64,000 nucleotides of DNA from positions 28,869 to 92,868 of the forward strand of contig JBBISL010000005.1 of NCBI GenBank assembly GCA_037441285.1. Direction: 5' to 3'. The notes beneath the pieces were generated by a model. It searched no databases and was not told the origin of the DNA. It was given only the letters and a program-made list of their open reading frames with translations. Below, piece after piece: positions 2,204 to 42,958 of the stretch. Positions within the stretch are counted from its first letter, which is position 1. Every line of letters begins with the position of its first letter. This DNA is from a candidate division WOR-3 bacterium (GTDB lineage Bacteria > Hydrothermota > Tepidihabitantia > Tepidihabitantales > Tepidihabitantaceae). A program made the position numbers and the translations under genes.

Positions 2204-4336
2204 ATGCAGGTTAAACCAGTGGGGGGATGGTTAAATGCCATCCCCCTGCTGATTTGTTTTTCGGTGTTGTCCGCGGCACAATGGACCTTGGGGGTTTATA
2301 TGGCGGCGGACAACGGAATGAGCGAGCAAGCCGCGGTTGATATCGGCGAGATGTTGCGGATTGGTTCGACCGAAGAGGTTAACATCGTTGTTCAGGTGGA
2401 CAACGCGGCTCGGGATACCAATCCCAGCTGCCGGCGCTATCTGGTCCGTAAGGACACCCTAATGCTGCTTGGTGACCTCGGGGAGCGAGATATGGCAGAC
2501 ACCGCAACCCTTGCCGAGTTTATCGGATTTCTGGGTCAGCGGTATCCGGCGCGAAACTACTTTTTAATTATCTGGGACCACGGTGATGGCTGGCGCAAGG
2601 GTTATGGTCCGCAGCGGGCGGTGGTGATTGATGAGTCGGATGGGCATATGATGGGCGTTGCCGGTGGTGAGTTAAAACGGGCAATCCGTTCTGGTAAGAG
2701 GAAACTGGGGAAGGATATTACCGTTATCGGATTTGATGCCTGTCTGATGGGTACGGTTGAGGTGGCAACAGAGCTTTTGGGTTCGTGCGACTATCTTTTG
2801 GCATCAGAGGCGGTTGTTCCCTGGGAGGGGTTTCCTTACGATGCGTTTTTGAGTCGGTTGGTGGCATATCCGACCGCAACCCCAGGGGAGTTTTTGCCCG
2901 AGATGTGTGCCGATTATGTTGCTTCGTACCCGGGGGAGGATGTGTGTCTGTCCGCGGTTGATATGAAGCAGCTGGCGCGGGTTCTGGCGAGCGCCAAACG
3001 AGCGGTGGGTGATAGCCTTGCGCCCAATAGTTTAGGGTTTGAACTGGCACGCCAGGGGGTGCAGACATTTTCCGGAAATGCGATAAGTCCACCCTGTTAT
3101 CAGGATGAGCAGGTTGATTTTATCCATCTCTGGCAACTGGCACCCGGAACCGGTTTGAGCGGTTTGCGCGCGGCGCTGAACCCGCTAATTGTTGCCAATG
3201 CGGTGAGCGGAAATTATAGCAATGCCCGGGGAATTTCGGTATGGTTCCCGGCTGGTTATCTGAGATTTAAGCAAAAAATCGATGAGTATCGGGCACTGGA
3301 CTTTGCCGATTCGGTGCCCTGGCTTCATTTCCTTAACAATTACTATTGCCGGGACGATGTCAAGCCGACGCGCCCGGGAATCGTCCATCATCAAACGGGT
3401 AAGCGGGGTGATGTGCGGCTCTGGTGGAAGCCGGCGTTTGACCTGAGTCCGGTGGTATATGAACTTTATCAGGCGGCAGAGCCCGAAAATGTTTTTTTGG
3501 ATAGGGCGGACAGTCTTGGTAACTGGGAAAGTTCGGGCTGGACCGTTTCCAGCCGGTACTTCCGCTCACCGGGAACCGCATTCTTTTCCGGCTCAGCGTC
3601 TAACCTTGACAACAGGCTTACACTACAACAACCGCTTAGCCTTGAGGCGGGCGGGTTGCTTTCTTTTTATGCGTTTTACTGGACCGAAGAGGCCGAGGAC
3701 AGCATGGGTGATATCAGCCGCGATGTGTGTTATGTTGAGTGGTCCAGGGATAAAAATAACTGGTATTCACTGGATTCGCTCTATGGCCAGGCGGACACCT
3801 GGCAGGAGTACCGTTATCTTCTGCCCGCGGGCGAGGTTTACCTGCGGTTTTATTACCAAACCGATGAGGGGGAGAATCGGTTAGGGGTGTTTATTGATGA
3901 CATCAGAGTTGAACGGTTTGACCTTTTGCGCCGGGTGACAGTAACACCGGATACTACCGCCTATCTGTTTAACCTCGCCCGGGACACAGCCGGTTACAAC
4001 TTCTTTGTTGTTGCGGTTGACTCTTTCAAGAACCGTTCAATGGTAAGCCAGCGCTACCCGGTGCAAATTTCGGACTGGGCAGAACCGTACACAATGCCGG
4101 CGCCGTTTTCTGGTGACTGTAAACTGGTGCTGGACTTTCCCGAGGAGGAAACGCCCGATGTTTTAATCTACACCCTGTCGGGAACAGTGGTGAAAAAATT
4201 TGCCCGGGTTTCAAGTAGGATAATCGAATGGGATGGCAAAAATGAGGAGCGCCAGGACCTGGCGGCCGGCGTTTATCTTGTTGTTGTTCAGGGTAAAAGG
4301 TTTAAGAAAATAGGGAAAATTGCCCGGGTAGAGTGA
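2204..4336 (+). CDS. Clostripain-like cysteine peptidase (family C11) with T9SS C-terminal sorting domain
   Basis: IIWDHGDGW (catalytic His-Gly) and IGFDACLMG (catalytic Cys) occur in C11 order and spacing. There is an N-terminal signal peptide. The C-terminus ...GVYLVVVQGKRFKKIGKIARVE is a T9SS CTD. Confidence 0.7.
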   Translation: MQVKPVGGWLNAIPLLICFSVLSAAQWTLGVYMAADNGMSEQAAVDIGEMLRIGSTEEVNIVVQVDNAARDTNPSCRRYLVRKDTLMLLGDLGERDMADTATLAEFIGFLGQRYPARNYFLIIWDHGDGWRKGYGPQRAVVIDESDGHMMGVAGGELKRAIRSGKRKLGKDITVIGFDACLMGTVEVATELLGSCDYLLASEAVVPWEGFPYDAFLSRLVAYPTATPGEFLPEMCADYVASYPGEDVCLSAVDMKQLARVLASAKRAVGDSLAPNSLGFELARQGVQTFSGNAISPPCYQDEQVDFIHLWQLAPGTGLSGLRAALNPLIVANAVSGNYSNARGISVWFPAGYLRFKQKIDEYRALDFADSVPWLHFLNNYYCRDDVKPTRPGIVHHQTGKRGDVRLWWKPAFDLSPVVYELYQAAEPENVFLDRADSLGNWESSGWTVSSRYFRSPGTAFFSGSASNLDNRLTLQQPLSLEAGGLLSFYAFYWTEEAEDSMGDISRDVCYVEWSRDKNNWYSLDSLYGQADTWQEYRYLLPAGEVYLRFYYQTDEGENRLGVFIDDIRVERFDLLRRVTVTPDTTAYLFNLARDTAGYNFFVVAVDSFKNRSMVSQRYPVQISDWAEPYTMPAPFSGDCKLVLDFPEEETPDVLIYTLSGTVVKKFARVSSRIIEWDGKNEERQDLAAGVYLVVVQGKRFKKIGKIARVE

Positions 4337-4338
4337 TT

Positions 4339-7095
4339 TTACTCCATAACCACAACCTTTTTTCGCACCGTCCCGGAGGCGGATTTCACCTCAATAAAGT
4401 AAACACCGTTCCCGAGTCCGTTCGTTGTAAACGTAATAGAGTGAACACCAGCCATTACCCTTTTTCTGGTGAGCAGGTTTTTGACCAATCGACCATCAAT
4501 TGAGTAAATGTCGGCGGTGATTTCGTCTTCTATTGGGGTTGCAAAATGTAATACACCCTGGGTTTTCAGGGGGTTGGGTTTAATGGCAATTTCCCGGGGC
4601 AAAGTGGCACCGGCTTTTTCCTGGGCACCAATGGGTTCAAGATAAAAGGCACCAAGCGCCTTGTCGGTTGCGAGCGGAGGGTAGTAGCCCCAAAAAGTCA
4701 AAAGAAACTGGGTTTCTGTTTCCCCTTGTGGCCCGCGACAGATATTAGAGTTAATCCGCCACTGTTCGTTAGAGATTAAGCGCAAACCCTGAGTGTCAAT
4801 GACCACGCCGGCGGTTGTTACCCGCGCACCGTAGATGGCACTGACACCTGATTCCCGATAGTCTTCCCAAACCACCAGATATTTACCAGCGCCATAGGCA
4901 AGGCGCGGATAGGTTTTACTGTCATTGGTGAGCGAAATCGGTCGAGGCAAGGGGTCAAGTACCATGCCATCCTCTCTTACCATTTTGCCGTAGATATCAA
5001 ATATTCCGTTCGCATCGGCACGCTGGTAAACAACAAAGTAGTTGGTACCATCAAAGGCAACATCGGGAAACATTTTTTCATATCCACTTGCAGTGTCAAT
5101 CGGTATTCCATCGGGGTCGATTAGTTCGCCGGCGCGCGTTACCCTTGCTCCATAGATGTGGTCATAACTCCCGTCGTACTGCATGCGCGTAATAAAGTAA
5201 TGGTCGGTTCCTGCGACAACTCTCGGGTAACCCACTCCCAACTCAGTTCGGGCAATTTCAATGTTGTCCAGGACGCGGCCTTCCGGAGTGACGCGCGCCG
5301 CATAAACTGAATACTGTGCGTTACTATTGTCGTAAGCCATCCAGGAAATAAGATAGTACGGGTCGTTAAATGTCACCGCCGGGTAGAAGTCGTCAATGCC
5401 GCTGTTCTGTGAAACCTGGATTCCGGTTGAATCTAAGAGTACCCCCTGGCGCGTGACCCGGGCAGCAAAGATGTCAGCTTCCCCATTGCGAAAGTCGGTC
5501 CACACGACAAGGAAGTTCTCGCCGTCAAAGTCCGCCACCGGTTTTTCAGATGTATTGCCGCCCGAGGAGATGAAAATGGCGCCTGAGTCAAGAATCTGAC
5601 CCGTGGGTGTCAATCTCGTCCCGTAAATGGCGCCCTCCGGTTCCCGAAAGTCCTCCCACACCACGAGGTAGTTTGACCCGTCAAAGGCGGCTTGCGGATA
5701 GGTCTGAGGGATGCTTCTTAGTCCCCGGGATGTCAATATGCCGTCCGGGTCTAAGATTGTGCCATCGGTGGCGACGCGGGTGGTCAGGATATCGGAGTCC
5801 ATTTCACCATAAATTGAGTAAGATACGAAATAGCGGTTTTGGCCGAAGGTCGTTGCGGGAGGCGAAAATGAGAAGTTGGAGTTAACCATAAAACCGCCCG
5901 TGTCAATCACCACACCTTCCCGGGTAATGCGCATTCCATAAACGCCATCAGCCCAGAGATAGGTGATAAAATGGTTTGTTCCGTCCGATGTAATGTCAGG
6001 AAAGGAGATGTCCATTTCGCCCAGCGGGATACCACTGGAGTCGAGCGGGTTTGCGGAGGTTGATATCCGGGAACCAAAAAGACGGTATGATTCAAGGGCT
6101 TCGCGGTCATCCATCCATACAGCAAAGTAGTTGGCACCATCAAATATCAATCGGGGGAGGAGCTGACTGTTGACTTCCCGAATGATTGGTTTGCCATTGG
6201 TGTCGATTACCACACCGCCGGGCCGGACGCGAGACCCATAAATATTAAAGTACTCATTACCTTCGTCTCGACCATCAGACCAGAGAATAAGGTAATTATT
6301 ACCATCGTAGGCGATACTGCGAAAGACAAACTGGTCATAGGAGGTGGTGCAGATGGGAATGCCGGATGGTTCTAACACAACACCGGCGGGAGTAACCCGG
6401 GCACCATAGACATCGTAGGAAGAATCGCCGTCCCGTTCATCGCTCCATGCGATAAAGTAGTTGGTACCGTCAAAGGCGATTGATGGGTAAAGATGGTCAC
6501 CACCCGAAGAAATCGGTATACCTTCGGGGTCAAGAACCACGCCGGTTGAGGAAACCCGGGCACCGTAAATGTCAAACAGCGCATCGTTGTCGCGGTCATC
6601 CATCCATACGACAAGGTAGTTATTGCCATCAAAGGCGATTGATGGCAATACCCGGTTTCCTTCGCCGGTGGCGATGGTTATCGGGAATGTATCAAGGAGT
6701 GTACCTTCTGCCGTGATGCGGGCGCCGCAAATTTGGGCATATTGATTGCGCCAATCGGTCCAGACGACAAAAAACTGCGTGCCATTGAAGGCAATTGCGG
6801 GGGAATCCTGGTCGCCTGGTGCCGCTCCAAGAAAAGAGGTAGTATCAAAGGCGAACTCTTCAAGAAATGAAGTGTTCAACCCGGTAATGCCGATTTGGGA
6901 GCGGCGGTCTCTAAAATCAAAGAGGTTTCTACGAGCATTTTTATTGTTTTGTTTTAGGTTGCTAAACATGAAGAATTGCTGTTCGTGCCGGCGATTTTGC
7001 GGTCGCGGCATTTGTCGCTTTACCATGAAAAAATTTGTTTGGGGTAAGGTAAATTGACTCAGGCAAATCAGGAGATTTGTGATTAAAAAATGCAT
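4339..7095 (-). CDS. 918-aa secreted protein made of ~13 tandem ~50-aa repeats, with T9SS C-terminal sorting domain
   Basis: AGGAGG sits 5 nt upstream of the ATG at 7095. Repeat consensus is P-x-IAFDG-x-NY-LVVW-x-D-x-R-(5-7)-DIYGARVT-x-x-G-x-VLD-x-x-GIPI. C-terminus is GVYFIEVKSASGTVRKKVVVME. Confidence 0.7.
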   Translation of the reverse strand: MHFLITNLLICLSQFTLPQTNFFMVKRQMPRPQNRRHEQQFFMFSNLKQNNKNARRNLFDFRDRRSQIGITGLNTSFLEEFAFDTTSFLGAAPGDQDSPAIAFNGTQFFVVWTDWRNQYAQICGARITAEGTLLDTFPITIATGEGNRVLPSIAFDGNNYLVVWMDDRDNDALFDIYGARVSSTGVVLDPEGIPISSGGDHLYPSIAFDGTNYFIAWSDERDGDSSYDVYGARVTPAGVVLEPSGIPICTTSYDQFVFRSIAYDGNNYLILWSDGRDEGNEYFNIYGSRVRPGGVVIDTNGKPIIREVNSQLLPRLIFDGANYFAVWMDDREALESYRLFGSRISTSANPLDSSGIPLGEMDISFPDITSDGTNHFITYLWADGVYGMRITREGVVIDTGGFMVNSNFSFSPPATTFGQNRYFVSYSIYGEMDSDILTTRVATDGTILDPDGILTSRGLRSIPQTYPQAAFDGSNYLVVWEDFREPEGAIYGTRLTPTGQILDSGAIFISSGGNTSEKPVADFDGENFLVVWTDFRNGEADIFAARVTRQGVLLDSTGIQVSQNSGIDDFYPAVTFNDPYYLISWMAYDNSNAQYSVYAARVTPEGRVLDNIEIARTELGVGYPRVVAGTDHYFITRMQYDGSYDHIYGARVTRAGELIDPDGIPIDTASGYEKMFPDVAFDGTNYFVVYQRADANGIFDIYGKMVREDGMVLDPLPRPISLTNDSKTYPRLAYGAGKYLVVWEDYRESGVSAIYGARVTTAGVVIDTQGLRLISNEQWRINSNICRGPQGETETQFLLTFWGYYPPLATDKALGAFYLEPIGAQEKAGATLPREIAIKPNPLKTQGVLHFATPIEDEITADIYSIDGRLVKNLLTRKRVMAGVHSITFTTNGLGNGVYFIEVKSASGTVRKKVVVME

Positions 7096-8737: not shown

Positions 8738-10552
8738 ATGAGGCGGCTTTTTTTAGCGGGCGCGTTTGGACTATCAATTTTGCTCGGCACCGTCGTGATG
8801 GCGCAGAGTTATCGGCTACCGGAATGGGTGATTGATGAAGGCGGGGTGGAGGCAAGAAGTAGCGGTTATATACTTAACGGCAGTTTTCATCAGACGACAA
8901 TCGGATATGCGACCGGCGGTAACTTTATCGCCTGGATTGGTTTCTGGCATCCCAGACCACAATGGGTCGGCGAACACGATGTTGCGGCGGTGCGGATTGT
9001 GGCACCGGTGGGCAGGGTTGATACGATGAACGATGTTACCCCGAAGGCGGAACTGGCGAACTACGGCACCGAGGCGGAAAATTTTACCGCGATATTTAAG
9101 ATTTACATCGCCGGGGGTGTGATTCCGGTCTATCAGAATTTTAAACTGGTTCATCTTGAGCCCGGTGAGTCGCGAATCGAACAGTTTGTTTCCACACGGT
9201 TGCATGGCCTTGGTCCCAACATCGCCCGCTGTTCGGTGGCACTGGCAAACGATGCCCATCGGGAAAACGACACCGTTTCGTCTGTATTTAAGGTTCTGGG
9301 CCGACCCGCATTACCCGAAGGTTGGTCTGAAGTGGAACAGATTCCGGCACCGCCGAGCGGGCGAGGTGTTAAAGATGGCGGATGGATTGCCGCGGATGAG
9401 GAAACGGGTGTGATGTATGTTTCAAAAGGGAACAAGGTGGCGGATTTTTATCTTTACGACCCGAACGCTTCTCCGGTATGGCGCGAACTTGACCCCTGGC
9501 CCAAGGGCAGTGAGGGCAAGAATCCCGGAAGGGGTTCGGTGGGTTATGTCGCGAGCGATGGTTGTGTTTATGCGACAAAAGGCAACAATACGCTTGGATT
9601 CTGGCGTTACAGTGCTTTGCTCGGCTGGGAGGCTTTGCCCAATGTGCCTTATGGTCCGAGCCATCGAAAGGTCAAAGATGGCTGTGATATGGTGTTTGTC
9701 GAAAGGGATGGACTTCCTTACATTTATCTCCTGAAAGGGACCCGTAACGAGTTTTATCGATACAACATTATCAGCGGTGTCTGGGAGGAGCTGGCACCGG
9801 CGCCCGGAACATCGAAATGGTACCGCGGTTCCTGGCTGGTTTACGACGGGGAAAATACGATTTACGCCCACAAGGCAAAGTATCATGAGTTTTATGCGTA
9901 TGATATCGCGGCGGGCGAGTGGCGGCAAACACCATTGGTGCCAATGCCAATCGCAAGCGAGCGGATGTTGACCCGGAAACGGGCAAAGGATGGCAGTTGC
10001 GGCACCTGGGCGTTTGGTTCAATCTTTGCCTTGAAAGGCGGCAACACCTGTGAGTTCTGGCGGTATATTCCGGATGGCGATTCCTGGGTGGAGATGGACA
10101 CAATCCCTTCGGTAGGTTCTTCTGGTTCTAAGAAGCGAGTGCGCAATGGTGGTGACATTGCGTTTTCCAGTGGGGAGGTTCTCTATGCGCTTAAAGGTAA
10201 CAAGACGCTGGAGTTGTGGCGGTTTGTACCCGGTGCAGAGATTGTCAATCCCGCACCACCGCAGCGGTCAGCCGTGATGGCGGAAGGAGTCAATTTATCG
10301 TCGGTGCCGGGTCTTCAGGTAATCAATTCGGTGGGGCGAGAGCAGGTCCAGGTGCGATACCAGCTGGGTGGCGCGGGGCAGGGTAGTTTGGAACTGATGG
10401 ACATTACCGGCCGGGTGATTGCGACGCAGAAAATTGTGGGTCAGGAAGGCAGTATCGTGCTGGGTGGGCACGGGATGAAGTCGGGAGTGTACTTTGTCCG
10501 GCTTCAGACCGAGACCCGCACCCTTGTACAGAAGGTGGTTTTCGCCCCTTAG
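8738..10552 (+). CDS. Kelch-like beta-propeller protein with T9SS C-terminal sorting domain
   Basis: Signal peptide present. Repeated GGWIAADEETGVMYVSKGNK / YATKGNNTLGFWRY / FALKGGNTCEFWRY blades. C-terminus GVYFVRLQTETRTLVQKVVFAP. It is paralogous to the C-terminal half of 30697-33891. Confidence 0.6.
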   Translation: MRRLFLAGAFGLSILLGTVVMAQSYRLPEWVIDEGGVEARSSGYILNGSFHQTTIGYATGGNFIAWIGFWHPRPQWVGEHDVAAVRIVAPVGRVDTMNDVTPKAELANYGTEAENFTAIFKIYIAGGVIPVYQNFKLVHLEPGESRIEQFVSTRLHGLGPNIARCSVALANDAHRENDTVSSVFKVLGRPALPEGWSEVEQIPAPPSGRGVKDGGWIAADEETGVMYVSKGNKVADFYLYDPNASPVWRELDPWPKGSEGKNPGRGSVGYVASDGCVYATKGNNTLGFWRYSALLGWEALPNVPYGPSHRKVKDGCDMVFVERDGLPYIYLLKGTRNEFYRYNIISGVWEELAPAPGTSKWYRGSWLVYDGENTIYAHKAKYHEFYAYDIAAGEWRQTPLVPMPIASERMLTRKRAKDGSCGTWAFGSIFALKGGNTCEFWRYIPDGDSWVEMDTIPSVGSSGSKKRVRNGGDIAFSSGEVLYALKGNKTLELWRFVPGAEIVNPAPPQRSAVMAEGVNLSSVPGLQVINSVGREQVQVRYQLGGAGQGSLELMDITGRVIATQKIVGQEGSIVLGGHGMKSGVYFVRLQTETRTLVQKVVFAP

Positions 10553-12210
10553 TCGAGAATCGCCTTCAGGTCTTCTTCGGGTGTTGCGATCGGCGTTAGA
10601 TTAAATTTGTCCACAAGTATCTGAACAATCCCGGGCGTGAGAAATGCGGGTAGCGACGGTCCGAGACGGATGTTTTTGATGCCGAGATAGAGCAGGGTCA
10701 AAAGCACCGCTACCGCCTTTTGTTCATACCAGGAAAGGATTAGCGAGAGCGGAAGTTCGTTTGGGTTGACTCCGAGCGACTTGCTTAAGGCGATGATAAA
10801 CTGGATTGCCGAGTAACTGTCGTTGCATTGGCCCACATCCCAGAGCCGGGGCAGACCTTCAATCGTCCCGAACTCCAGTTTGTTGAACCGGTACTTACCG
10901 CAGGCAAGGGTTAAGATAAGACATTCGTTCGGGACGAGCTGGGCGAACTGGGTGAAGTAGTTCCTGCCCGGTTTTGCACCGTCACAGCCACCAATCAGAA
11001 AGATGTGACGCAGGCGCTGCGATTGAATCAGTTCGGTTATTTCGTCCACTTTGCTTAACAGGGTGTTGCGGCCAAAGCCCACGGTAATGTAATGCTCGGC
11101 ACCCTCAGTGCCAAATCCGGGTTGGGCAAGTGCCGCTTCAATCACCGGGGAAAAGTCATCGCGGTGCACATGACGCACCCCGGGCCAGGCAACGAGTCCG
11201 GATGTAAAGATGCGGTCTTTGTAACTCTCCTGAGGCCGCTGGATACAGTTGGTGGTCATCAGAATCGCACCGGGGAAGAGCGGGAACTCCTTTTGCTGGT
11301 TCTGCCAGGCAGAGCCGTAGTTGGCCACGAGGTGTTTGTAGGCTTTAAGTTTGGGATAGCCATGAGCCGGCAGCATTTCCCCATGGGTGTAGATGTTGAT
11401 ATTTTTGTCTTTGGTCTGCTCAAGGAGGGCGGCGAGGTCACGCAGGTCATGACCGGAGACACAGATTGCTTTGCCCCGCACCGGGGTAATCCGAACCCGG
11501 GTTGGAACTGGCTCGCTATAGTTTAAGGTGTTTGCCAAATCAAGCAGTTCGGTTACGCTCAGATTGAGTGCGCCGACCGCTAAGGCGTTATTTAACAGTT
11601 CCTGGGTGTCAAACTGGTCCCGCGTCAGGTAGTCAAGTAGTTCGTGAAACCGGGCGTAGAGCCGGTCGTCTTCTTTGCCCAGAATCGCAGCATGGTCGGT
11701 ATAGGCGGCAGCGCCTTTAAGACCGAAGAGGATGAGGTCCATCAGGTCGGCTTGTTCGTCGCCAAAGCGCGCGTGCCGGCTGAGGATGCCGGCCTTTTTG
11801 CCCTGTGCGATGAGGCCATCAATATCAGGCGCCGGAGTCCAGCTGGCAGGTCCAGAAAGGGTTTCCGGTTGAACCCCTTTAGTTCGGCAGGCGTCAAGGT
11901 AAAGTTTTTGTGCCCGAGCCTTTAAATCAGCGGCACGGAACAGAAGCCCTTTCAATCTTTCCGGGTCAAAGTCCACATTGGTGATGGTGGAAAACAGCGC
12001 CTCAACCGTAAACAGGTTGATTTCGCAGTCGGTGGCACCCAAACGCCGGGCACGGTGCGCAAACTGGGCGATGCCTTCGGTCGCGTAGATTAACAGGTCC
12101 TGCAAGGTTGCGGTCGTCGGGTCTTTGCCACAGACTCCCTGAGTTGTGCAACCGGTACCGCCTTTGGTCTGTTCACATTGATAACAGAACATCTTTACTT
12201 CTTCATTCAT
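10549..12210 (-). CDS. hcp: Hybrid cluster protein (hydroxylamine reductase)
   Basis: N-terminus MFCYQCEQTKGGTGCTTQGVCGK is the canonical Hcp cysteine motif. Full length is 553 aa with the conserved C-terminal Cys/His/Glu ligands region. Confidence 0.9.
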   Translation of the reverse strand: MNEEVKMFCYQCEQTKGGTGCTTQGVCGKDPTTATLQDLLIYATEGIAQFAHRARRLGATDCEINLFTVEALFSTITNVDFDPERLKGLLFRAADLKARAQKLYLDACRTKGVQPETLSGPASWTPAPDIDGLIAQGKKAGILSRHARFGDEQADLMDLILFGLKGAAAYTDHAAILGKEDDRLYARFHELLDYLTRDQFDTQELLNNALAVGALNLSVTELLDLANTLNYSEPVPTRVRITPVRGKAICVSGHDLRDLAALLEQTKDKNINIYTHGEMLPAHGYPKLKAYKHLVANYGSAWQNQQKEFPLFPGAILMTTNCIQRPQESYKDRIFTSGLVAWPGVRHVHRDDFSPVIEAALAQPGFGTEGAEHYITVGFGRNTLLSKVDEITELIQSQRLRHIFLIGGCDGAKPGRNYFTQFAQLVPNECLILTLACGKYRFNKLEFGTIEGLPRLWDVGQCNDSYSAIQFIIALSKSLGVNPNELPLSLILSWYEQKAVAVLLTLLYLGIKNIRLGPSLPAFLTPGIVQILVDKFNLTPIATPEEDLKAILD

Positions 12211-13028
12211 TTCTCCTCCTTGATATTACCATCGATACCAAGGGTGATTTCCTTAAATGGGATGTTTTTCCCGCTGGTAGCAAGCGCGTGACGGGCAATT
12301 TGCACCAGGCCATAACAGCAGGGCACCTCCATATGTAAACAGGTTACCGAAAGGATGCTATTCTCCTGGAAGATGCTTGTCAACTTCTCTAAGTAGAACT
12401 GGGCATCGTCCAGTTTGGGACAGGCGATGAGCAGGACCTTACCGGCAAGGAATTCGGGATGAAATGCGGTGCTGGTAAAACCGGTGCAGTCAGCAGCGAG
12501 CAGGAGGTGGGCGTTGTTAAAGTATGGAGCATGGACTGGGACAAGGGTTAACTGAATGGGCCAGGTGGTGAGCTGTGATTCCGGGCGAGTGGTATCAGGT
12601 GCCGGTTTTTCTTTTGGTGTCAGACGGCGTACCTGAGTGCCCGGGCAACCACAGGCAAGCGCCGGTTTTTCGTCTGGTATCGGGATGTCGTGTTCTTTCA
12701 GGTAGGCGATTGCTTCCTCATAAAATTTCTGGGCACCGTGCTCTTTTAAGTGCTTAAGATGGGCGCGGATGGTATTGGCACCGGCGCGCACGATATTCCC
12801 CATCACCTTTCGTTCATCATAGGGTTCGGCAGGTCGTTCTTCAATGGTGAGCGCGCCCTCTGGACAGGTGCCAACACAGGCACCCAAACCATCACAAAAC
12901 AGGTCAGAAATCAGCCGTGCCTTGCCGTCAATTACCTGCAGCGCACCTTCCGGGCAGTTGGGGATACAAAAACCACAGCCCGTGCACTTTTCTTCATCAA
13001 TACGGATTATTTTTCTTGTCTTCTTCAT
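12207..13028 (-). CDS. 4Fe-4S dicluster ferredoxin-domain protein (Hcp-associated redox partner)
   Basis: Two CxxCxxCxxxCP motifs (CTGCGFCIPNCP, CDGLGACVGTCP). Its stop overlaps the hcp start by 4 nt (ATGA), indicating translational coupling. Confidence 0.7.
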   Translation of the reverse strand: MKKTRKIIRIDEEKCTGCGFCIPNCPEGALQVIDGKARLISDLFCDGLGACVGTCPEGALTIEERPAEPYDERKVMGNIVRAGANTIRAHLKHLKEHGAQKFYEEAIAYLKEHDIPIPDEKPALACGCPGTQVRRLTPKEKPAPDTTRPESQLTTWPIQLTLVPVHAPYFNNAHLLLAADCTGFTSTAFHPEFLAGKVLLIACPKLDDAQFYLEKLTSIFQENSILSVTCLHMEVPCCYGLVQIARHALATSGKNIPFKEITLGIDGNIKEEK

Positions 13029-13441
13029 TTTTCCTCCAGATTTAATTTAACTGCGGCTAAACTGGTCGTCTTCAAGTACCGGACCAGTTGGCGATTGGTT
13101 TTTAAAAGGAAATTTCCCACCGGGCAGCCACCGTGGCATATCGGGATGGCAAAAGGACAGTGGTTGACTTCGACTGTGCCAACGACCGCCTGATAGACCG
13201 CAAGCAGGCTTATTTCCTTTGCCGGTCGCGTCAGAAGATAACCGCCCATTGGTCCGGTTTTTCCCTTGACCAAACCGGCTTTTTCCAGTTGCACCAGTAC
13301 TTTTGCCAGATGGGCAGCAGAGACACCAAGGATTCGGGCAAGGCGGTTGATTGTCCAGCGTTCAGCGGGATGATGGGCAAGGATTAATGCGGCATGGAGC
13401 CCGAGGCGGGCTGCTTCCGGGGTGTTAACCAATTCTGCCAT
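13025..13441 (-). CDS. Rrf2-family transcriptional regulator (NsrR/IscR-like)
   Basis: N-terminal wHTH typical of Rrf2 (LGLHAALILAHHP...WTINRLARILGVSAAHLAKVLVQLEKAGLV). Cysteines present in the C-terminal half. It is the first gene of the Fd-hcp operon, with a 4-nt overlap to the next gene. Confidence 0.8.
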   Translation of the reverse strand: MAELVNTPEAARLGLHAALILAHHPAERWTINRLARILGVSAAHLAKVLVQLEKAGLVKGKTGPMGGYLLTRPAKEISLLAVYQAVVGTVEVNHCPFAIPICHGGCPVGNFLLKTNRQLVRYLKTTSLAAVKLNLEEK

Positions 13442-30696: not shown

Positions 30697-33600
30697 GTGA
30701 AAAAAGTTCTGGTTTTACTCTTGCTGGGGTTTTTGCTCGCCGGGGCAGAAGAGGGCGCGCGCTATTTGATTGTTGCCCCGGATTCGTTCGTTTCTGCCGC
30801 TTTTCCCCTTGTCCACTGGAAGACCGCAAAAGGGATGCTCGCAAAGGTTGTGCCGACGAGCGAAACCGGAACCGACACCGCCTCAATTCGCAGTTACATT
30901 CGCTATGCCTGGAACAACTGGGACATTCCACCCGAATATATTTTGCTTCTGGGTGGTCCGACTCATATCCCGAGCCTCAACTACAACAACGACAACTACT
31001 ACGGCGATATGACCGGCAATTACTTGATGGAAATCCCGGTGGGAAGATTTCCGGCACAGACGGTGCGCGACTGCAGCACATTTGTTGCCAAGGTCCTGGC
31101 GTATGAAAATCCACCGGCGGACATTGATACGCTCTGGTTTTACAAAGGAACAACCGTGGTTCGGGAAGATGTACCCCCGGACTCTTTTTATCAAAAGGAT
31201 TCGCGGATTTTACGTCAGTACTGGGTGGCGCGGGGTTTTGCCCTGGCAGAGAGTTTGTGCGACCTTTATGGTGACTCGAGTCGGGAGGTGAATGCGGCAG
31301 CGCACGACGGCAGGCTTTTCATCACCTATCGGGGTTCTGGTGTCAGCACCTGGTACTCGCCTTTCAATGCGGTTGATGCCACTGGCTGGGGAAATGGTGC
31401 GAAAATGCCGGTGGTGGTGAGCGGTACCTGTGCGACGATAACTCTGGCACCGGGTGAGTCGATGTATGGTGACCGGTTTGTGCGTGCCGGTTCACCAGGG
31501 GCGCTGGGCGGTGCAATTGCGTTTTTTGGAACAACCCGTGCGGGAAACCACCTTTCCCGGTACCGGAGCGCCTGTTTTCGGGGGTTTTTCCATTCGCTTT
31601 ATGAAGAGGGTGAGTACCGATTGGGAAAGGCGGCGTTGCGCGGTAAGTTCTGGATTGATTCAATTTATGGAGATTCGGTGCGCTATCTTGAATGGAACCT
31701 GTTGGGCGACCCGGAACTCAATGTCTGGACCGGACCGGTAAAAACCTTACAGGTGGCGCACGATTCGGTTGTCCTGCGAAAGCCCCAGAACTTTGTCGTG
31801 ACAGTGCGGGCGGGTGGTGTACCGGTGCCGAATGCGGTGGTCTGTGTCTCAATGGATTCAACCGTTTATGAGTACACGAGCACAAACAGCCAGGGTCAGG
31901 CGATTTTTGAAATCAATCCGGTCAACACCGGCTCACTTCAGATTGTGGTTACGGGTAAAGACCTAAGACCCTATATCGGGAGTTGCGAGGTTATCGCAAA
32001 GGATGTTGCGTGCACAGCGATTCTGGCGCCGGCTGGAGTGGTAGATTCGGGGATGGGTGTGACACCGGTGGTGAAACTTTTCAACTACGGCAGCAGGATG
32101 GAGAGTTATCCGGTGCGGCTCAGAATCGGCACAAATTACTGTCAGGTGGAAACGGTCTATTTTCATCAGCCCACCACCGAAAACGAGTTGATTTTCCCGC
32201 GCTGGTATGCCCGGGAAAGGGGCAGTCTGGTGGTCAGTTGTTCAACCGAACTGATGAACGATGTTGTGCCGGAAAATGACCGGGATACCGGTGCGGTTTT
32301 TGTCCGGGTGCGCGATGTCGCAGTGTCAAGGATTGTGGTGCCGGTGGACCGGTATCCAGCAGGAAGTGTGATTACGCCGGTGGTCGCAGCCCAGAACCCG
32401 GGCAATGTGAATGCGACATATCAGATGTGGTTGACGATTACCAACGCTCAGGGGCAACCGGTTTACACCGCTCAACAGAATGTTGTGAACCAGCCCCCAG
32501 GCGATTCGGAACTGTTTGTTACATTTGCGCCCTGTTCCTTGAACACCGGTGGCAAATGGGCGGTGCGGTGCAGCGTCTATTATCCATTTGACCAGGTGCC
32601 GGCAAACAACATCAAAACCGGTGAGTTCTGGGTGACGCCGGTATGGCAGGCAGGCTGGCACGAGGTGGTGGCGATGCCGGCGGCACCTTCAGGCGCAGCG
32701 GTCAAAGATGGGGGCTGGATTGCGGCAGATGAGAATTCGGGTGTGATTTATGCGGGTAAAGGCAACAAAACAGGCGACTTTTATGCCTATGAGCCGTTTA
32801 CCGACACCTGGCGTATCCTATCGCCGATTTTGCCGGGAAGAGAGGAACGGTTGCCGAAAAAAGGTGCGCGGGGTGTTGCCGATGGTGCGGGAAGGGTGTA
32901 TTTAGTTAAAGGGAATAATAGCCGGGGTTTCTGGTGCTACCACGCAACCGAAGACCGGTGGGAACAGTTATCTGATATTCCGCTGGGTAATAGCGGCAAA
33001 GCGGTGAAGGGCGGGGGCGATATGTTGTATCTATTGAAAAACGACACCGGCTATCTGTACCTGTTAAAAGGTTATTACAGCGATTTCCTGTGTTACAACA
33101 CCGCAACCGGTGAGTGGCGTGTGCTCCCGGATGCGCCGACGGGAAAGTGGAAAGAGGGTTCCTGGCTGGTTTACGACGGCGCTAATAACATCTATGCCCA
33201 TCGGGCAAACAGCGAAGAGTTGTGGGTGTTTGAGATCGAGAGCAACCGCTGGAGCACAACACCCCTGCCGGGCATTCCGCGGCAGAGCACGCGGACCGGT
33301 AAGAGTAAAAAGTCCAAGGATGGAAGTGCGGCGGCGTATTACGACGGTTGTATTTATGCCCTGAAAGGTGGCAATACCGCGGAGTTCTGGTGCTATCGGA
33401 CCACGGAAGCCCGCTGGGAGGAACTTGACACCATTCCCCAGCAGGGTTCTACCGGTAAAAAGAAACGGGTGAAAGCCGGCGGTGATATCGCCCATTTTGG
33501 CGGCGGCGTGTTTTTTGCCCTGAAGGGCAACAAGACCCGGGAACTGTGGCGCTATGTACCAGCAATGGGTTTGGCTTCAGGACCCACAATGCCGCGCTCC

Positions 33601-33891
33601 GGAGTTAGGGGCGAAGCGAGTGACGAAAAGGGGGTTAAGTCAATGCCGACGGTGTCAAGTGTGGCGATGCTCGAGAGATATCGGACCGAACTGGCAAGCG
33701 AGAGCGGTGCAAAAGGCGTCCGGGTCTGGATAGTGGACATTACGGGTCGGGTGGTGGCAGAGATGCATTCAATAAATTCCGGTAAGGCAGAAAAGAGCCC
33801 GATTGGCAGTTTAGCACCCGGTGTTTACTTCTTGCAACTGGAAACCGATGCCGGTTATCGCGGGGTAAAGAAGATAACGGTGGTGCGGTGA
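30697..33891 (+). CDS. Gingipain-like (peptidase C25 family) N-domain + Ig-like linkers + Kelch-like beta-propeller + T9SS C-terminal sorting domain
   Basis: GTG start after an AAGGAGG RBS, then a signal peptide. The N-terminal ~350 aa have C25-like layout (YRGSGVSTW ... VVVSGTCATITL). The C-terminal half is paralogous to 8738-10552. It ends GVYFLQLETDAGYRGVKKITVVR. Confidence 0.55.
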   Translation: MKKVLVLLLLGFLLAGAEEGARYLIVAPDSFVSAAFPLVHWKTAKGMLAKVVPTSETGTDTASIRSYIRYAWNNWDIPPEYILLLGGPTHIPSLNYNNDNYYGDMTGNYLMEIPVGRFPAQTVRDCSTFVAKVLAYENPPADIDTLWFYKGTTVVREDVPPDSFYQKDSRILRQYWVARGFALAESLCDLYGDSSREVNAAAHDGRLFITYRGSGVSTWYSPFNAVDATGWGNGAKMPVVVSGTCATITLAPGESMYGDRFVRAGSPGALGGAIAFFGTTRAGNHLSRYRSACFRGFFHSLYEEGEYRLGKAALRGKFWIDSIYGDSVRYLEWNLLGDPELNVWTGPVKTLQVAHDSVVLRKPQNFVVTVRAGGVPVPNAVVCVSMDSTVYEYTSTNSQGQAIFEINPVNTGSLQIVVTGKDLRPYIGSCEVIAKDVACTAILAPAGVVDSGMGVTPVVKLFNYGSRMESYPVRLRIGTNYCQVETVYFHQPTTENELIFPRWYARERGSLVVSCSTELMNDVVPENDRDTGAVFVRVRDVAVSRIVVPVDRYPAGSVITPVVAAQNPGNVNATYQMWLTITNAQGQPVYTAQQNVVNQPPGDSELFVTFAPCSLNTGGKWAVRCSVYYPFDQVPANNIKTGEFWVTPVWQAGWHEVVAMPAAPSGAAVKDGGWIAADENSGVIYAGKGNKTGDFYAYEPFTDTWRILSPILPGREERLPKKGARGVADGAGRVYLVKGNNSRGFWCYHATEDRWEQLSDIPLGNSGKAVKGGGDMLYLLKNDTGYLYLLKGYYSDFLCYNTATGEWRVLPDAPTGKWKEGSWLVYDGANNIYAHRANSEELWVFEIESNRWSTTPLPGIPRQSTRTGKSKKSKDGSAAAYYDGCIYALKGGNTAEFWCYRTTEARWEELDTIPQQGSTGKKKRVKAGGDIAHFGGGVFFALKGNKTRELWRYVPAMGLASGPTMPRSGVRGEASDEKGVKSMPTVSSVAMLERYRTELASESGAKGVRVWIVDITGRVVAEMHSINSGKAEKSPIGSLAPGVYFLQLETDAGYRGVKKITVVR

Positions 33892-33922: not shown

Positions 33923-35191
33923 GTGCGGCGGTTCACCATTTATGCGCTGGTATTGACGGTGCTGGTGATTGCGGTTTTCAATGTCCACAGCTGGCTGGTG
34001 CTGTCGCGGAGTCGGGCGGCGCTCGAAGAGGAGTTAGGGAACCGGCTGGAAACGGTGGCAAAGACGATTGCCACGCAGTTGCGAACCCGGGAGTTGACAC
34101 CGGAGCAGGTGCGGGCGCTGAATGAGACGATGAACGAAGCGGACCTGTTCAACATCTTTCTGGTTGACGAGAGTCTGCGCTATGTGTTTAATGTGCGGGA
34201 GCCCGCAGTGGCGGGCAAAACCGACCCGATGCTGGAACTGGATGCAACCGAAATCTTATCCGCTTTCAGCGGGATGCCAAGCCGGACCCGGCTGTTCGCA
34301 GCCGGACCTTACTATCTAAAAACCGCCTATGCGCCGGTTTACCGTGCCGGCGGTACGATTGATGGCGTGCTCGGGGTTGAGGCGGATGCGCGGTTTTTCC
34401 GCAGTCTGACCCTTTACCGCAATTCGCTTTTGTTTGTCAACGGGTTGAGTCTGATAGCACTGGTGGCGCTGGTTCTGGCGCTGCTGAGCATTGCCCGGCA
34501 CGCCCTGAAACTGGAGCAGGCAGCGGCGCGCGCCAGCACATTCGCCCTGCTCGGTGAAATGGCGGCAGCGCTGGCGCACGAAATCCGGAACCCGCTTGCC
34601 ACCATCCTTGCCACAACCGAGCGGCTGAAGATTCGGTACGGAGCAGAAAACGACCCGACATTTGATTACATCCGGGAGGAGGTGGAACGGCTCAATCGGA
34701 CACTGACCAACTATTTGAGCATCGGCTCGGGCAAGCCCGGTGCGATGGAAGAGGTGGACCTGGGCGCACTGATTGGTCAGGTTCTCACCCGAATGGAGGA
34801 GGAGTTGAACCGCAACGGGATACGGATTGAAAATCGGCTGGAACAGTTGCCCAAAGTCCGGGGTTCGGAGTTGCAGTTGCGCCAGGTGTTTATGAACCTG
34901 TTTCTCAATGCGCTGCAGGCACAACCGCAGGGCGGGTTGTTGAGGATTGAGGCAAAAACCGCGGAGAAAGGCGGCAGGCGCTGGTTGGTGGTGCAGGTTA
35001 CCGACCATGGTTCGGGTATACCAAGAGAGTACCAGAGCCGCGTGTTTGAGCCGTTCTTCACGACCAAAGAGAAGGGGAGCGGACTCGGGCTGTTTGTGGT
35101 GCGGCGGATTGTTGAGTTGCATCAGGGTGAAGTGCGGCTGCGCAGTGCGCCGGACAGCGGTACAACGGTGGAGGTGTGGTTGCCGGTATGA
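33923..35191 (+). CDS. Membrane sensor histidine kinase
   Basis: Two TM segments flank a periplasmic domain. H-box AHEIRNPLATI, N/G boxes and GSGLGLFVVRRIV are present. Confidence 0.8.
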   Translation: MRRFTIYALVLTVLVIAVFNVHSWLVLSRSRAALEEELGNRLETVAKTIATQLRTRELTPEQVRALNETMNEADLFNIFLVDESLRYVFNVREPAVAGKTDPMLELDATEILSAFSGMPSRTRLFAAGPYYLKTAYAPVYRAGGTIDGVLGVEADARFFRSLTLYRNSLLFVNGLSLIALVALVLALLSIARHALKLEQAAARASTFALLGEMAAALAHEIRNPLATILATTERLKIRYGAENDPTFDYIREEVERLNRTLTNYLSIGSGKPGAMEEVDLGALIGQVLTRMEEELNRNGIRIENRLEQLPKVRGSELQLRQVFMNLFLNALQAQPQGGLLRIEAKTAEKGGRRWLVVQVTDHGSGIPREYQSRVFEPFFTTKEKGSGLGLFVVRRIVELHQGEVRLRSAPDSGTTVEVWLPV

Positions 35192-41388: not shown

Positions 41389-41632
41389 AATCGGGCTTAA
41401 GCACAGAAACAGCGGTTTATTTTACGGCGATGGGTGCCTTATCTTTTAGACCCCAATTTCCCGCCCTTTTAACGCTCTGTTAACTCATTGAAATCCTGTT
41501 GATTACCGCAGGGGGTACGGTATAGGTAACGACCCTCTGGGTCGTTCCGGGGGTAGTATTCAGGGCTCTCTTTTGTCTGGCTAATAAGGTGGAATCGGTG
41601 GCGACTTTTTCGGCTGATGCCGTTTTTATGGT

Positions 41633-42076
41633 TTGGAACCTGCCCGATTTTTACTCCGGCGCGGGCGGTGTTTATCGAGTGGTATAAAAAAAGCGGCTTA
41701 TCAGAAGATTGGCGAAAGGTTGCGGTGGTATGCAAGTAAACGGGGGTTTGAGTATCGAGCGCTGCGCATTACCAATGCGACGAAACGCTGGGGGTCTTGT
41801 TCACAGAACAAAACTCTTAACTTCACCTGGCGACTGGTGATGGCACCGTTACCGGTGCTCGACTATGTTGTAGTGCATGAACTGGTTCATCTGGAAGAGA
41901 GGAGACATAATAAAAATTTCTGGAGTATTGTGAAGATGCTGATACCGGATAGTGAAAGATGTGAAGAATGGTTAAAGACGAACGGGTATTTGTTGAATTT
42001 GTCGGGATTTTTGCAAAGGCTTATAGCCGCACGGTGGGCAGTGCGTTTTATAGAGGAAGAAAAGGGTGCGAGTTGA
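41633..42076 (+). CDS. YgjP-like metal-dependent hydrolase (DUF45/M48-like, HExxH)
   Basis: WGSCSQNKTLNFTWRLVMAPLPVLDYVVVHELVHLEE matches the YgjP family core. TTG start, with an in-frame stop at 41615 upstream. Confidence 0.6.
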   Translation: MEPARFLLRRGRCLSSGIKKAAYQKIGERLRWYASKRGFEYRALRITNATKRWGSCSQNKTLNFTWRLVMAPLPVLDYVVVHELVHLEERRHNKNFWSIVKMLIPDSERCEEWLKTNGYLLNLSGFLQRLIAARWAVRFIEEEKGAS

Positions 42077-42121
42077 CAGGGGCGAAGTTGCGGGTAGAAT
42101 GGAAGGAGAACCAAAAAGGAG

Positions 42122-42912
42122 GTGCGTTTGTTGAAGTTCGTTAAGGTTGGTGCAATGGCGCTTTTGCTGTTGGCACCGGCTTTGGTAATGGCTTGGCCCC
42201 AACCCGGCGACCCCGCTCCGGATGTTTCAGTTCCGGACACCGCCTGGGTTACACATCTTGTGCCTTCGGAGTACCGGGGGCATGTTGTCCAGCTCTTTTT
42301 CTGGCAGTCCACCTGACCAGGTTGTCTCGCGAGTTGCCGCGAATCCAGGCAATGTATGATGAGTATGGCGCTCAGGGTTATCTGCCTTTGGGAATAAATC
42401 TGTTTCAGGATATGAATTCGGTGGTGAAGGTTTATGCCCGGCAGTACACCTATCCGTTTTTCCGTGACGGCGGTCCTGCCTGGAGCGCCTATCGGATGAA
42501 TGGTTATATCCCGCTGAACTATGTGATTGATACCGCGGGCATCGTGGTCGGGTCAATGGAAGGTTTTGATGAGGCGACGGTGCGGAGCTGGATTGAGCCG
42601 TATCTGACCGGTGTGAAGGAGGAGAAGAGGTCAGCGGTGCCGGAGCTGGTGCGCGTTTTCCCGAACCCGGCAGGGATGAGTCAAAGGCTGAGTTTCAGTT
42701 TGCCCGCCGCAAGTCCGGTTACGGTGCGGGTCTATGCCGCTTCCGGGGAACTGGTGCGCACGGTGTTTTCCGGTACGCTGACAGCGGGCAATCAGTCGGT
42801 GGTCTGGAATCTAACCGATGATGGGGGTAAGTCGGTGCCGAATGGTCTTTACTTTTACGAGGTTGCCGCTGGTGCCAGTAGCGTACGGATGAAGGCGTCA
42901 GTTTTGCGATAG
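42122..42912 (+). pseudogene. TlpA/ResA-like thioredoxin-fold oxidoreductase with T9SS CTD; in-frame TGA at the first CxxC cysteine plus a 1-nt frameshift 10-15 nt later (candidate selenoprotein with an indel, or a pseudogene)
   Basis: Frame A gives a signal peptide then ...APDVSVPD...YRGHVVQLFFWQST-TGA-PGCL. Frame B continues (A/R)ELPRIQAMYDEYGAQGYLPLGIN...YIPLNYVIDTAGIVV. Restoring one G in GCGAG (42329-42333) gives FWQST-U-PGCLAELP, which matches FWASWCxPCRAEMP. The C-terminus NGLYFYEVAAGASSVRMKASVLR is a T9SS CTD. Confidence 0.5.
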
Positions 42913-42929
42913 CGCAAACGGGTTTTAAA

Positions 42930-42958
42930 GGGCGTCCGATTTTCGGGCGCCCTTTTTT
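42930..42958 (+). terminator. Rho-independent terminator
   Basis: GGGCGTCCG / CGGGCGCCC 9-bp stem (one G-U pair) with a 5-nt loop, followed by TTTTTT. Confidence 0.55.

Follow-up and report, generated by a model that had tools for sequence, protein, structure and literature searches.

A predicted selenocysteine-containing TlpA-like redoxin with a type IX secretion sorting domain in candidate division WOR-3

INTRODUCTION

Selenoproteins of the thioredoxin fold that carry selenocysteine (Sec, U) in a UxxC active site have been catalogued under the names 'Prx-like thiol:disulfide oxidoreductase' (PF00578), 'Redoxin family protein' (PF08534) and 'UGC-containing TlpA family' (PMC13188914). Here we analyze a related gene at positions 42122-42912 of a 64,000-nucleotide stretch of DNA from a candidate division WOR-3 bacterium (contig JBBISL010000005.1, positions 28,869 to 92,868; the whole stretch is hereinafter referred to as the window). 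A preliminary description of this DNA, prepared from the letters alone, proposed that the gene encodes a UxxC selenoprotein of the TlpA/ResA type, and this proposal is supported by the conserved TGA, the covarying hairpin and the Cys-form homolog described below. Judging from these comparisons, the locus is very probably a single monocistronic gene for a secreted selenoprotein, with a signal peptide, a TlpA/ResA/DsbE-like domain with a U-P-G-C active site and a FlgD_ig / type IX secretion system (T9SS) type A domain, of which the window contains a copy with a single-G deletion.

The Sec-containing Prx-like oxidoreductase and Redoxin UxxC families (Table 1 in PMC13188914) share with the window family the same Pfam domains, the UxxC motif at the N-terminal active site and a bacterial Sec insertion sequence (SECIS, bSECIS for the bacterial type) located within the open reading frame (ORF) just 3' of the UGA; unlike them, the window family has a C-terminal FlgD_ig / T9SS type A domain and is represented mainly in WOR-3. 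The clade may already be counted in one of the catalogued families. The similarity to TlpA, ResA, DsbE (CcmG) and StoA includes the thioredoxin fold, the W-x-x-W/T-C-x-x-C site and the signal peptide; it is also among these proteins that the top-scoring PDB and NCBIfam matches are found. However, they use Cys, are periplasmic or membrane-anchored and are involved in the maturation of cytochrome c or Cu centres, whereas the window protein combines a predicted Sec with an outer-membrane secretion/sorting tag and shows low identity to them (E about 1e-9).

The hairpin downstream of the UGA resembles the SECIS of the Escherichia coli fdhF type and the bSECISearch consensus in being an in-ORF stem-loop with a G followed by a U early in a small apical loop, at 16 nt between the UGA and the loop. 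It differs from the fdhF-type element in that the stem is very short and uniform (6-7 bp) and lacks a bulged U, the loop AGUUR is near-invariant, the distance to the UGA is the minimum allowed and the same six codons encode the conserved peptide L/R-A-E-L-P-R. As in T9SS type A cargo (Por_Secre_tail / TIGR04183), the C-terminal domain scores over the TIGR04183 cutoff, and a PorV-like protein, a C25 gingipain-like peptidase and proteins with C-terminal sorting domains are encoded in the same window. No T9SS cargo described as a selenoprotein was found in the searchable literature, and nothing relevant came from searches that paired WOR-3 with selenoprotein, selenocysteine or type IX secretion, or type IX secretion with selenoprotein. 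The catalytic kind, a UxxC TlpA/Prx-like redoxin, is already known; the fusion with a T9SS domain and the use of Sec in WOR-3 appear not to have been described yet.

RESULTS AND DISCUSSION

Conservation of the TGA codon in the redoxin family

The arrangement given in the preliminary description, with the TGA at 42314-16 followed by a hairpin, a switch of frame and a T9SS domain, is present in full at the locus. Frame A, opening with GTG 42122, encodes a signal-peptide-like N-terminus, recognized by eye from its hydrophobic segment (...LLLLAPALVMA, then WPQ), and continues as ...GHVVQLFFWQST, ending in VVQLFFWQST, to the TGA, after which P-G-C follows in the same frame. The parts of the gene are as follows:

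42122..42313, + strand: N-terminal coding part in frame A, with the signal peptide (...LLLLAPALVMA, then WPQPGD) followed by strand 1 of the thioredoxin fold and closing with FFWQST

42314..42316, + strand: in-frame TGA, the U of UxxC and predicted Sec codon; TGA is found at the homologous codon of 27 loci and 75 further genes, and the codon is aligned with the first Cys of WCxxC in DsbE (3gl3)

42317..42326, + strand: 10-nt spacer (CCAGGTTGTC) that includes the xxC of UxxC, with the resolving Cys codon TGT at 42323-25

42327..42342, + strand: SECIS-type hairpin in a damaged state, UCGCG-AGUUGC-CGCGA, with 5 bp; the relatives have a 6-bp stem NCGCGG/CCGCGN and the loop AGUUR

42331..42332, + strand: window-specific 1-nt deletion, GCGGAG to GCGAG, which shifts the frame by -1 and removes one base pair of the stem

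42331..42912, + strand: rest of the gene in frame B, ELPRIQAMYDEYG..., which completes the redoxin fold (IPLNYVID motif) and continues with a linker and the FlgD_ig / T9SS type A sorting domain; stop codon at 42910-12

A protein search for homologs returned about 120 sequences, and nearly all of the named ones belong to candidate division WOR-3. The DNA sets compared with the window included an NCBI metagenome-assembled genome (MAG) of WOR-3 (L001), a sequence from Logan (L030), 28 species-representative genomes and 79 metagenome contigs. Look-ups of the 186-aa ORF and of ParB as exact protein sequences gave no match. The best relatives, which come from genome, metagenome and Logan data, are 88-90% identical, and L001 is syntenic with the window across the genes for ParA, ParB, an M23 peptidase, the redoxin, SBP and TruA. 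In the closest relatives, the gene is a single frame of 263 codons. Within L001-L030, an in-frame stop at the first position of CxxC was found in 27 loci and is always TGA; together with 75 further genes of the metagenome set that have TGA at the same codon, this feature is present in at least 100 genes, 90 unique TGA-bearing genes being available for comparison. In all 27 measured loci, the frame is open for at least 60 codons before the TGA and for 196-412 codons after it. The 12 codons that separate the TGA from the first Met are in frame in every case, contain no stop and include the conserved x-A-E-L-P-x as well as the resolving Cys, which is invariant and is encoded by either TGT or TGC. 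The preliminary description had left it to an alignment of orthologs to tell whether this codon is Cys or TGA; the alignment yielded both, namely TGA in at least 100 genes and a Cys-form homolog (L013, P0037). On this comparative evidence, TGA is ancestral and conserved at this codon.

Most of the homologs are annotated as proteins of 186-192 aa that start just past the active-site motif, and a minority are annotated at full length (255-265 aa). About 100 homologs have been clipped by gene callers to about 186 aa, and such a truncated annotation is a classic mark of an unrecognised selenoprotein.

Several variants of the family were identified. The Cys form, CPYC with the codon TGC, occurs in one lineage, WOR-3 UBA3079 / JGI_Cruoil_03_51_56 (P0037, L013, L073, L074). 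Two paralogs per MAG, each with the conserved TGA and a covarying hairpin, were detected repeatedly (L015/L018, L016/L020, L011/L021, L017/L022), which is a strong indirect argument for a Sec trait. Tandem TGA paralogs, each with its own hairpin, are also present at L102 3500/4334, L108 3501/4334, L061 2288/3166 and L071 2262/3139; in one subgroup of such tandem paralogs, the loop closes to GUU (codons GAG TTT), yielding a stem of 7-8 bp. In other paralogs, the Sec codon is replaced by GAC for Asp (D forms: L050 2265, L052 2834, L053 and L054 5281, L009, L010, L051), with the motifs DSSC, DSTC, DSAC or DSVS, the last of which has lost both redox residues. Most of the D forms retain a SECIS-like hairpin, and those of L050 and L052-54 are located about 2.1 kb downstream of a Sec-form gene. 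The D forms are probably redox-inactive duplicates that carry a SECIS relic of their Sec-form ancestors; the same relic phenomenon has been described for Cys forms derived from Sec forms (Zhang et al., 2006, PMC1794560).

Domain architecture

For domain searches, the window protein was repaired by placing Cys at the TGA and adding one G, resulting in a protein of 263 aa, the length that the frame has in the closest relatives. The repaired protein matches the Pfam domains AhpC-TSA (PF00578; 9.7e-15, 55 bits against a cutoff of 26), Redoxin (PF08534; 5e-09, 36.5 bits against 26.6) and FlgD_ig (PF13860; 4e-11, 43 bits against 27), and the NCBIfam model of the T9SS type A sorting domain (TIGR04183; 30 bits against 23). 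A redoxin domain and the C-terminal T9SS domain of the preliminary description are both recovered above the respective thresholds. The sorting domain spans about 75-80 residues (approximately residues 179-256); PF18962 scores 19.6 bits in the window protein, below its cutoff of 27, and is above cutoff in the relatives L024 and L102. The combination of a signal peptide, a Sec-redoxin and FlgD_ig/Por_Secre_tail is found in the group of 263-aa WOR-3 proteins, in a second WOR-3 group, whose paralogs have about 472 aa, and in L024 and L102.

Among solved structures, DsbE/CcmG (3gl3), ResA, StoA and the C-terminal domain of DipZ come closest (entries 3gl3, 4nmu, 1st9, 3erw). The window sequence FFWQST-U-PG-C fits the active-site motif W-x-x-x-[C/U]-x-x-C, and the TGA is aligned with the N-terminal active-site Cys of DsbE/CcmG (3gl3), ResA and StoA. 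Among the NCBIfam redoxin models, ResA is the top match, at a score of 41 against a cutoff of 170 (StoA, 29 against 210), and no NCBIfam selenoprotein model reaches its cutoff (WAxxUGC_long, 18 against 300; redoxin_TUGYCR, 17 against 100).

Outside the WOR-3 groups, L025-L029 (MAGs of Phycisphaerales and Gemmatimonadota) retain the TGA, the UxxC motif and the covarying hairpin, in the forms UUGCGG/CCGCAA, GUGCGG/CCGCAC and UUGUGG/CCACAA. Instead of the T9SS domain, these proteins have a C-terminal domain of about 110 residues that has no Pfam match and ends with FDF-x-x-VP.

A covarying hairpin downstream of the TGA

All TGA genes except for the divergent L024 have the hairpin NCGCGG-AGUUR-CCGCGN, which begins 11 nt past the UGA. 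The hairpin of L024 is different: by eye, a stem closing the AGUU loop is possible, and the computed folds differ from it. The hairpin of a single sequence is unremarkable (z = -0.74 in a 41-nt context); its significance comes from the comparison of sequences. In the alignment of 27 sequences, all 162 of 162 cells of the stem are standard pairs, and compensatory double changes are observed in 3 of the 6 pairs; in control registers shifted by 1-3 nt, pairing drops to 27-72%. Because shared ancestry inflates counts of covariation, changes were also counted by parsimony on a neighbour-joining tree of the 90 unique TGA genes, built from the protein sequence outside the hairpin. By this count, pair 14-30 has changed at least 12 times (UA, GC, GU, UG) and pair 15-29 at least 7 times (CG, UA, AU), and neither is unpaired in any of the genes, in which the stem as a whole is paired practically without exception. 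The codons within the hairpin are nearly fixed as well: Ala, Glu and Pro are encoded by GCG, GAG and CCG in 88-89 of the 90 genes, compared with a background of 36%, 52% and 45%, respectively, in the window. The 10-nt spacer that precedes the hairpin occurs in 59 distinct sequences in the same genes. In the Cys-form lineage, the same R-A-E-L-P is encoded by GCA GAA CTG CCC, and there is no hairpin (-1.5 to -3.5 kcal/mol).

According to the published criteria (PMC13188914), the loop of a bSECIS has 3-9 nt, with a G among its first two positions, the stem has 4-16 bp, the UGA and the loop are 16-37 nt apart and the minimum free energy (MFE) is no higher than -7.5 kcal/mol. Both the orthologs and the window sequence after repair fall within all of these limits, with a loop of 5 nt (AGUUG), a stem of 6 bp, a G at loop position 2 followed by a U, 16 nt from the UGA to the loop and an MFE of -10.0 kcal/mol. 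The unrepaired window sequence, in which the stem has 5 bp, the loop lies 15 nt from the UGA and the MFE is -7.2 kcal/mol, misses two of the thresholds. The bacterial SECIS suspected in the preliminary description covaries in the family and fits the published criteria after the G is restored.

Decoding of the UGA

Taken together with the position of the codon in the active site, the comparative evidence makes Sec the most likely meaning of the UGA 'stop' in this redoxin family. By analogy with the established bacterial Sec pathway, we infer the following route for insertion, export and enzymatic function. The UGA at 42314 would be recoded to Sec when SelB with Sec-tRNA(Sec) binds the hairpin beginning 11 nt further on, and the full-length protein would be exported via SecYEG. 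The T9SS could then carry it over the outer membrane, to be attached to the cell surface or released from it. There, a selenenylsulfide (Se-S) redox centre might allow it to function as a thiol-disulfide oxidoreductase or, perhaps, a thiol peroxidase.

Several observations weigh against this reading. Neither a tRNA (ARAGORN) nor an Rfam hit nor a SelA, SelB or SelD domain (Pfam, about 40 ORFs) was detected in the window, and no selA, selB, selD or tRNA-Sec gene was found in 828 kb of related loci, each of which is a small part of its genome. The D-form paralogs hold the hairpin, so that it can exist without the TGA, and the hairpin overlaps the conserved peptide AELP, which accounts for part of its conservation and leaves the synonymous fixation and the compensatory changes unexplained. 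Finally, the window copy is non-functional as sequenced.

The search for Sec machinery also employed tblastn, with E. coli SelA, SelB and SelD sequences used as probes only. Two weak matches to these probes were rejected as Sec machinery and proved to be ThiL and TypA/BipA. A scan of the window for TGA-joined ORFs that could represent other selenoprotein genes gave just adjacent genes in the same frame or antisense ORFs.

The failure to find Sec machinery in the window or the 828 kb of related DNA, and the listing of the downstream part in databases as a stand-alone protein of 186 aa, would be in line with a UGA that does not specify Sec at all. The codon could terminate translation, with separate products or a dead gene as the outcome, or could be read as a standard amino acid, for example by readthrough, or as Cys if a tRNA(Cys) resembling tRNA(Sec) acts in a SECIS-dependent manner; some bacteria have been reported to insert Cys at UGA in a process that requires SelB and a SECIS. 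All these possibilities together appear highly improbable. About 100 independent 'pseudogenes' that stop at one and the same codon are not credible; the linker from the TGA to the first Met, with its invariant Cys and conserved xAELPx, is kept open and in frame throughout; a stand-alone C-terminal product would be devoid of both the signal peptide and the active site; and a hairpin that covaries and lies at the canonical SECIS distance is specific to recoding of the SelB type. Furthermore, TGA serves as an ordinary stop in the rest of the window, where it is the commonest stop codon and ends 25 of the 49 genes, which excludes a global reassignment of TGA.

The one-base deletion in the window copy

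Where the window has CTCGCGAGTTGCCGCGA, the five closest relatives have GCGGAG: L001, L002, L031 and L032 read CTCGCGGAGTTGCCGCGA, and L030 reads CTCGCGGAGTTACCGCGA. The repair proposed in the preliminary description, one G added to GCGAG (42329-33) so as to yield CLAELP, reproduces the sequence of these relatives exactly. The same description considered two lesions 12 nt apart; the deletion is indeed a lesion, and the TGA, being conserved in at least 100 genes, is not. The deletion was observed in the window copy and in no other homolog examined. Located in the 5' arm of the predicted SECIS stem, it leaves the window gene as written unable to yield the full-length protein.

The flanking signals of the gene are the following:

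42073..42100, + strand: promoter-like site TTGACA-16 nt-TAGAAT upstream of the gene, putative, with an 11/12 match to the consensus

42118..42133, + strand: Shine-Dalgarno sequence GGAGG (42118-22) and the candidate starts GTG 42122, TTG 42128 and TTG 42131, as read from the sequence

42927..42955, + strand: intrinsic-terminator-like hairpin (13 pairs, 8 of them G-C) followed by a T run, directly 3' of the stop codon

The promoter-like site and the strong terminator thus bracket the redoxin gene. Given the position of GGAGG at 42118-22, TTG 42128 and TTG 42131 are better candidates for the true start than GTG 42122; translation from TTG 42131 gives MKFVKVG..., and the TTGAAG at this point is kept in L001.

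The ratio of nonsynonymous to synonymous substitution rates (dN/dS) is 0.15-0.19 between the window gene and its relatives, compared with 0.165-0.167 between the intact relatives, and 0.13-0.16 for the part located 3' of the frameshift. With L001 as the outgroup, the window branch is no longer than the L030 branch in dN, by arithmetic on pairwise distances. The gene is therefore undecayed, and these values rule out an old pseudogene. Programmed -1 frameshifting was rejected as well, as there is no slippery heptamer at CUC GCG AGU and all relatives are in frame.

The absence of relaxed selection on the window branch, even downstream of the frameshift, together with the intact site in every other homolog, is compatible with an error of consensus, assembly or sequencing, in which case the living organism would have an intact GCGGAG gene and make the selenoprotein. 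The site lies within a GC-rich perfect hairpin, and such hairpins are prone to sequence-specific errors; in addition, L002 has an isolated 1-nt frameshift of its own. The deletion is in a GG dinucleotide, however, rather than in a long homopolymer, and over some 23 kb of alignment with L001 and L002, the sole uncompensated indel that breaks a window ORF is the one at 42332, with no other apparent from the Pfam coverage of about 40 window ORFs. We consider the chances of such an error to be about even.

The frameshift in L002 affects a conserved histidine kinase gene (L002 1990-3257, homologous to window 33923-35191), which is split into ORFs of 305 aa and 123 aa by a 1-nt deletion (GGGATAC in the window versus GGG-TGC in L002); the window copy is intact, with 422 aa. 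From this case, a rough rate of about one isolated 1-nt frameshift per 20 kb can be estimated for the MAGs of this clade. A generally error-ridden assembly of the window was considered and rejected, as the ORF pairs 19705/20675, 23076/24116, 26232/26959 and 55230/56545 are separate intact genes.

This otherwise clean assembly speaks for a real deletion, that is, a very recent, strain-specific inactivation that shifted the frame and weakened the SECIS at the same time. The hairpin as sequenced falls below two bSECIS thresholds (15 nt, -7.2 kcal/mol), frame A meets a TAA about 26 codons past the TGA, and a truncated YgjP-like fragment specific to the window is located directly upstream, which points to a true rearrangement at this spot. 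Because the dN/dS of the window copy is indistinguishable from that of the intact orthologs, the inactivation would have to be very recent; the promoter-like site, the Shine-Dalgarno sequence and the terminator are also all intact. We place the probability of a real deletion slightly short of one half, so that an error and a very recent mutation are about equally likely.

The YgjP-like metallopeptidase fragment (41633-42076, + strand) corresponds to the C-terminal half of PF01863 only (profile positions 106-206 of 207). It is missing in L001, L002 and L030; their alignments with the window are interrupted at this point, the DNA at 41570-42108 being non-homologous, and in L030 the spot is occupied by a different gene, which is AT-rich and encodes 494 aa. 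Since the alignments are broken upstream of the redoxin gene, that site varies among the relatives.

Genomic context in the window

Other genes of the window that are relevant to the T9SS are the following:

1127-2194: PorV-like protein (31 bits against a cutoff of 27)

2204-4336: C11 clostripain-like peptidase

4339-7095, - strand: 918-aa protein with a Por_Secre_tail domain

30697-33891: C25 gingipain-like peptidase with Kelch repeats

None of the T9SS core genes porK, porL, porM, porN, sov and porU was detected in the window, and a functional T9SS in WOR-3 is suggested by gene content. A search of the window for the hairpin motif gave no further copy. On the minus strand, positions 10549-13441 contain an apparent operon that encodes an Rrf2-family regulator, a 4Fe-4S ferredoxin-domain protein and a hybrid-cluster (Prismane) protein, a combination that fits an anaerobic lifestyle with a nitrosative or oxidative stress response.

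CONCLUSIONS

The proteins described here may constitute an undescribed selenoprotein family, a possibility that we regard as evenly balanced: a T9SS-surface-routed, TlpA-like UxxC redoxin that is widespread and multi-paralog in WOR-3, has relatives in Phycisphaerales and Gemmatimonadota, and is consistently annotated in public databases as a clipped protein of 186 aa named 'T9SS sorting domain / FlgD Ig-like'. For the window gene itself, the message is modest: its annotation should be that of a selenoprotein gene interrupted by a single-base frameshift, and the frameshift calls for a check of the reads. At the level of databases, about 100 entries are N-terminally clipped and have lost the signal peptide and the active site, and the alignment and the hairpin model obtained here would allow the construction of a corrective family model.

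If the proposed decoding is correct, the SECIS of this family would be unusually minimal and near-invariant (6 bp, loop AGUUR), and it would be embedded in the codons of a conserved peptide. With many independent compensatory changes, a Cys form in which the hairpin is lost and D forms that bear relics, the family would provide a clean example of a minimal bacterial SECIS. The findings would also represent the first evidence of selenocysteine use by WOR-3 and the first T9SS-exported selenoprotein. A selenol redox centre placed outside the outer membrane via the T9SS would raise the questions of what an extracellular Sec redoxin reduces and what, in turn, re-reduces the redoxin.

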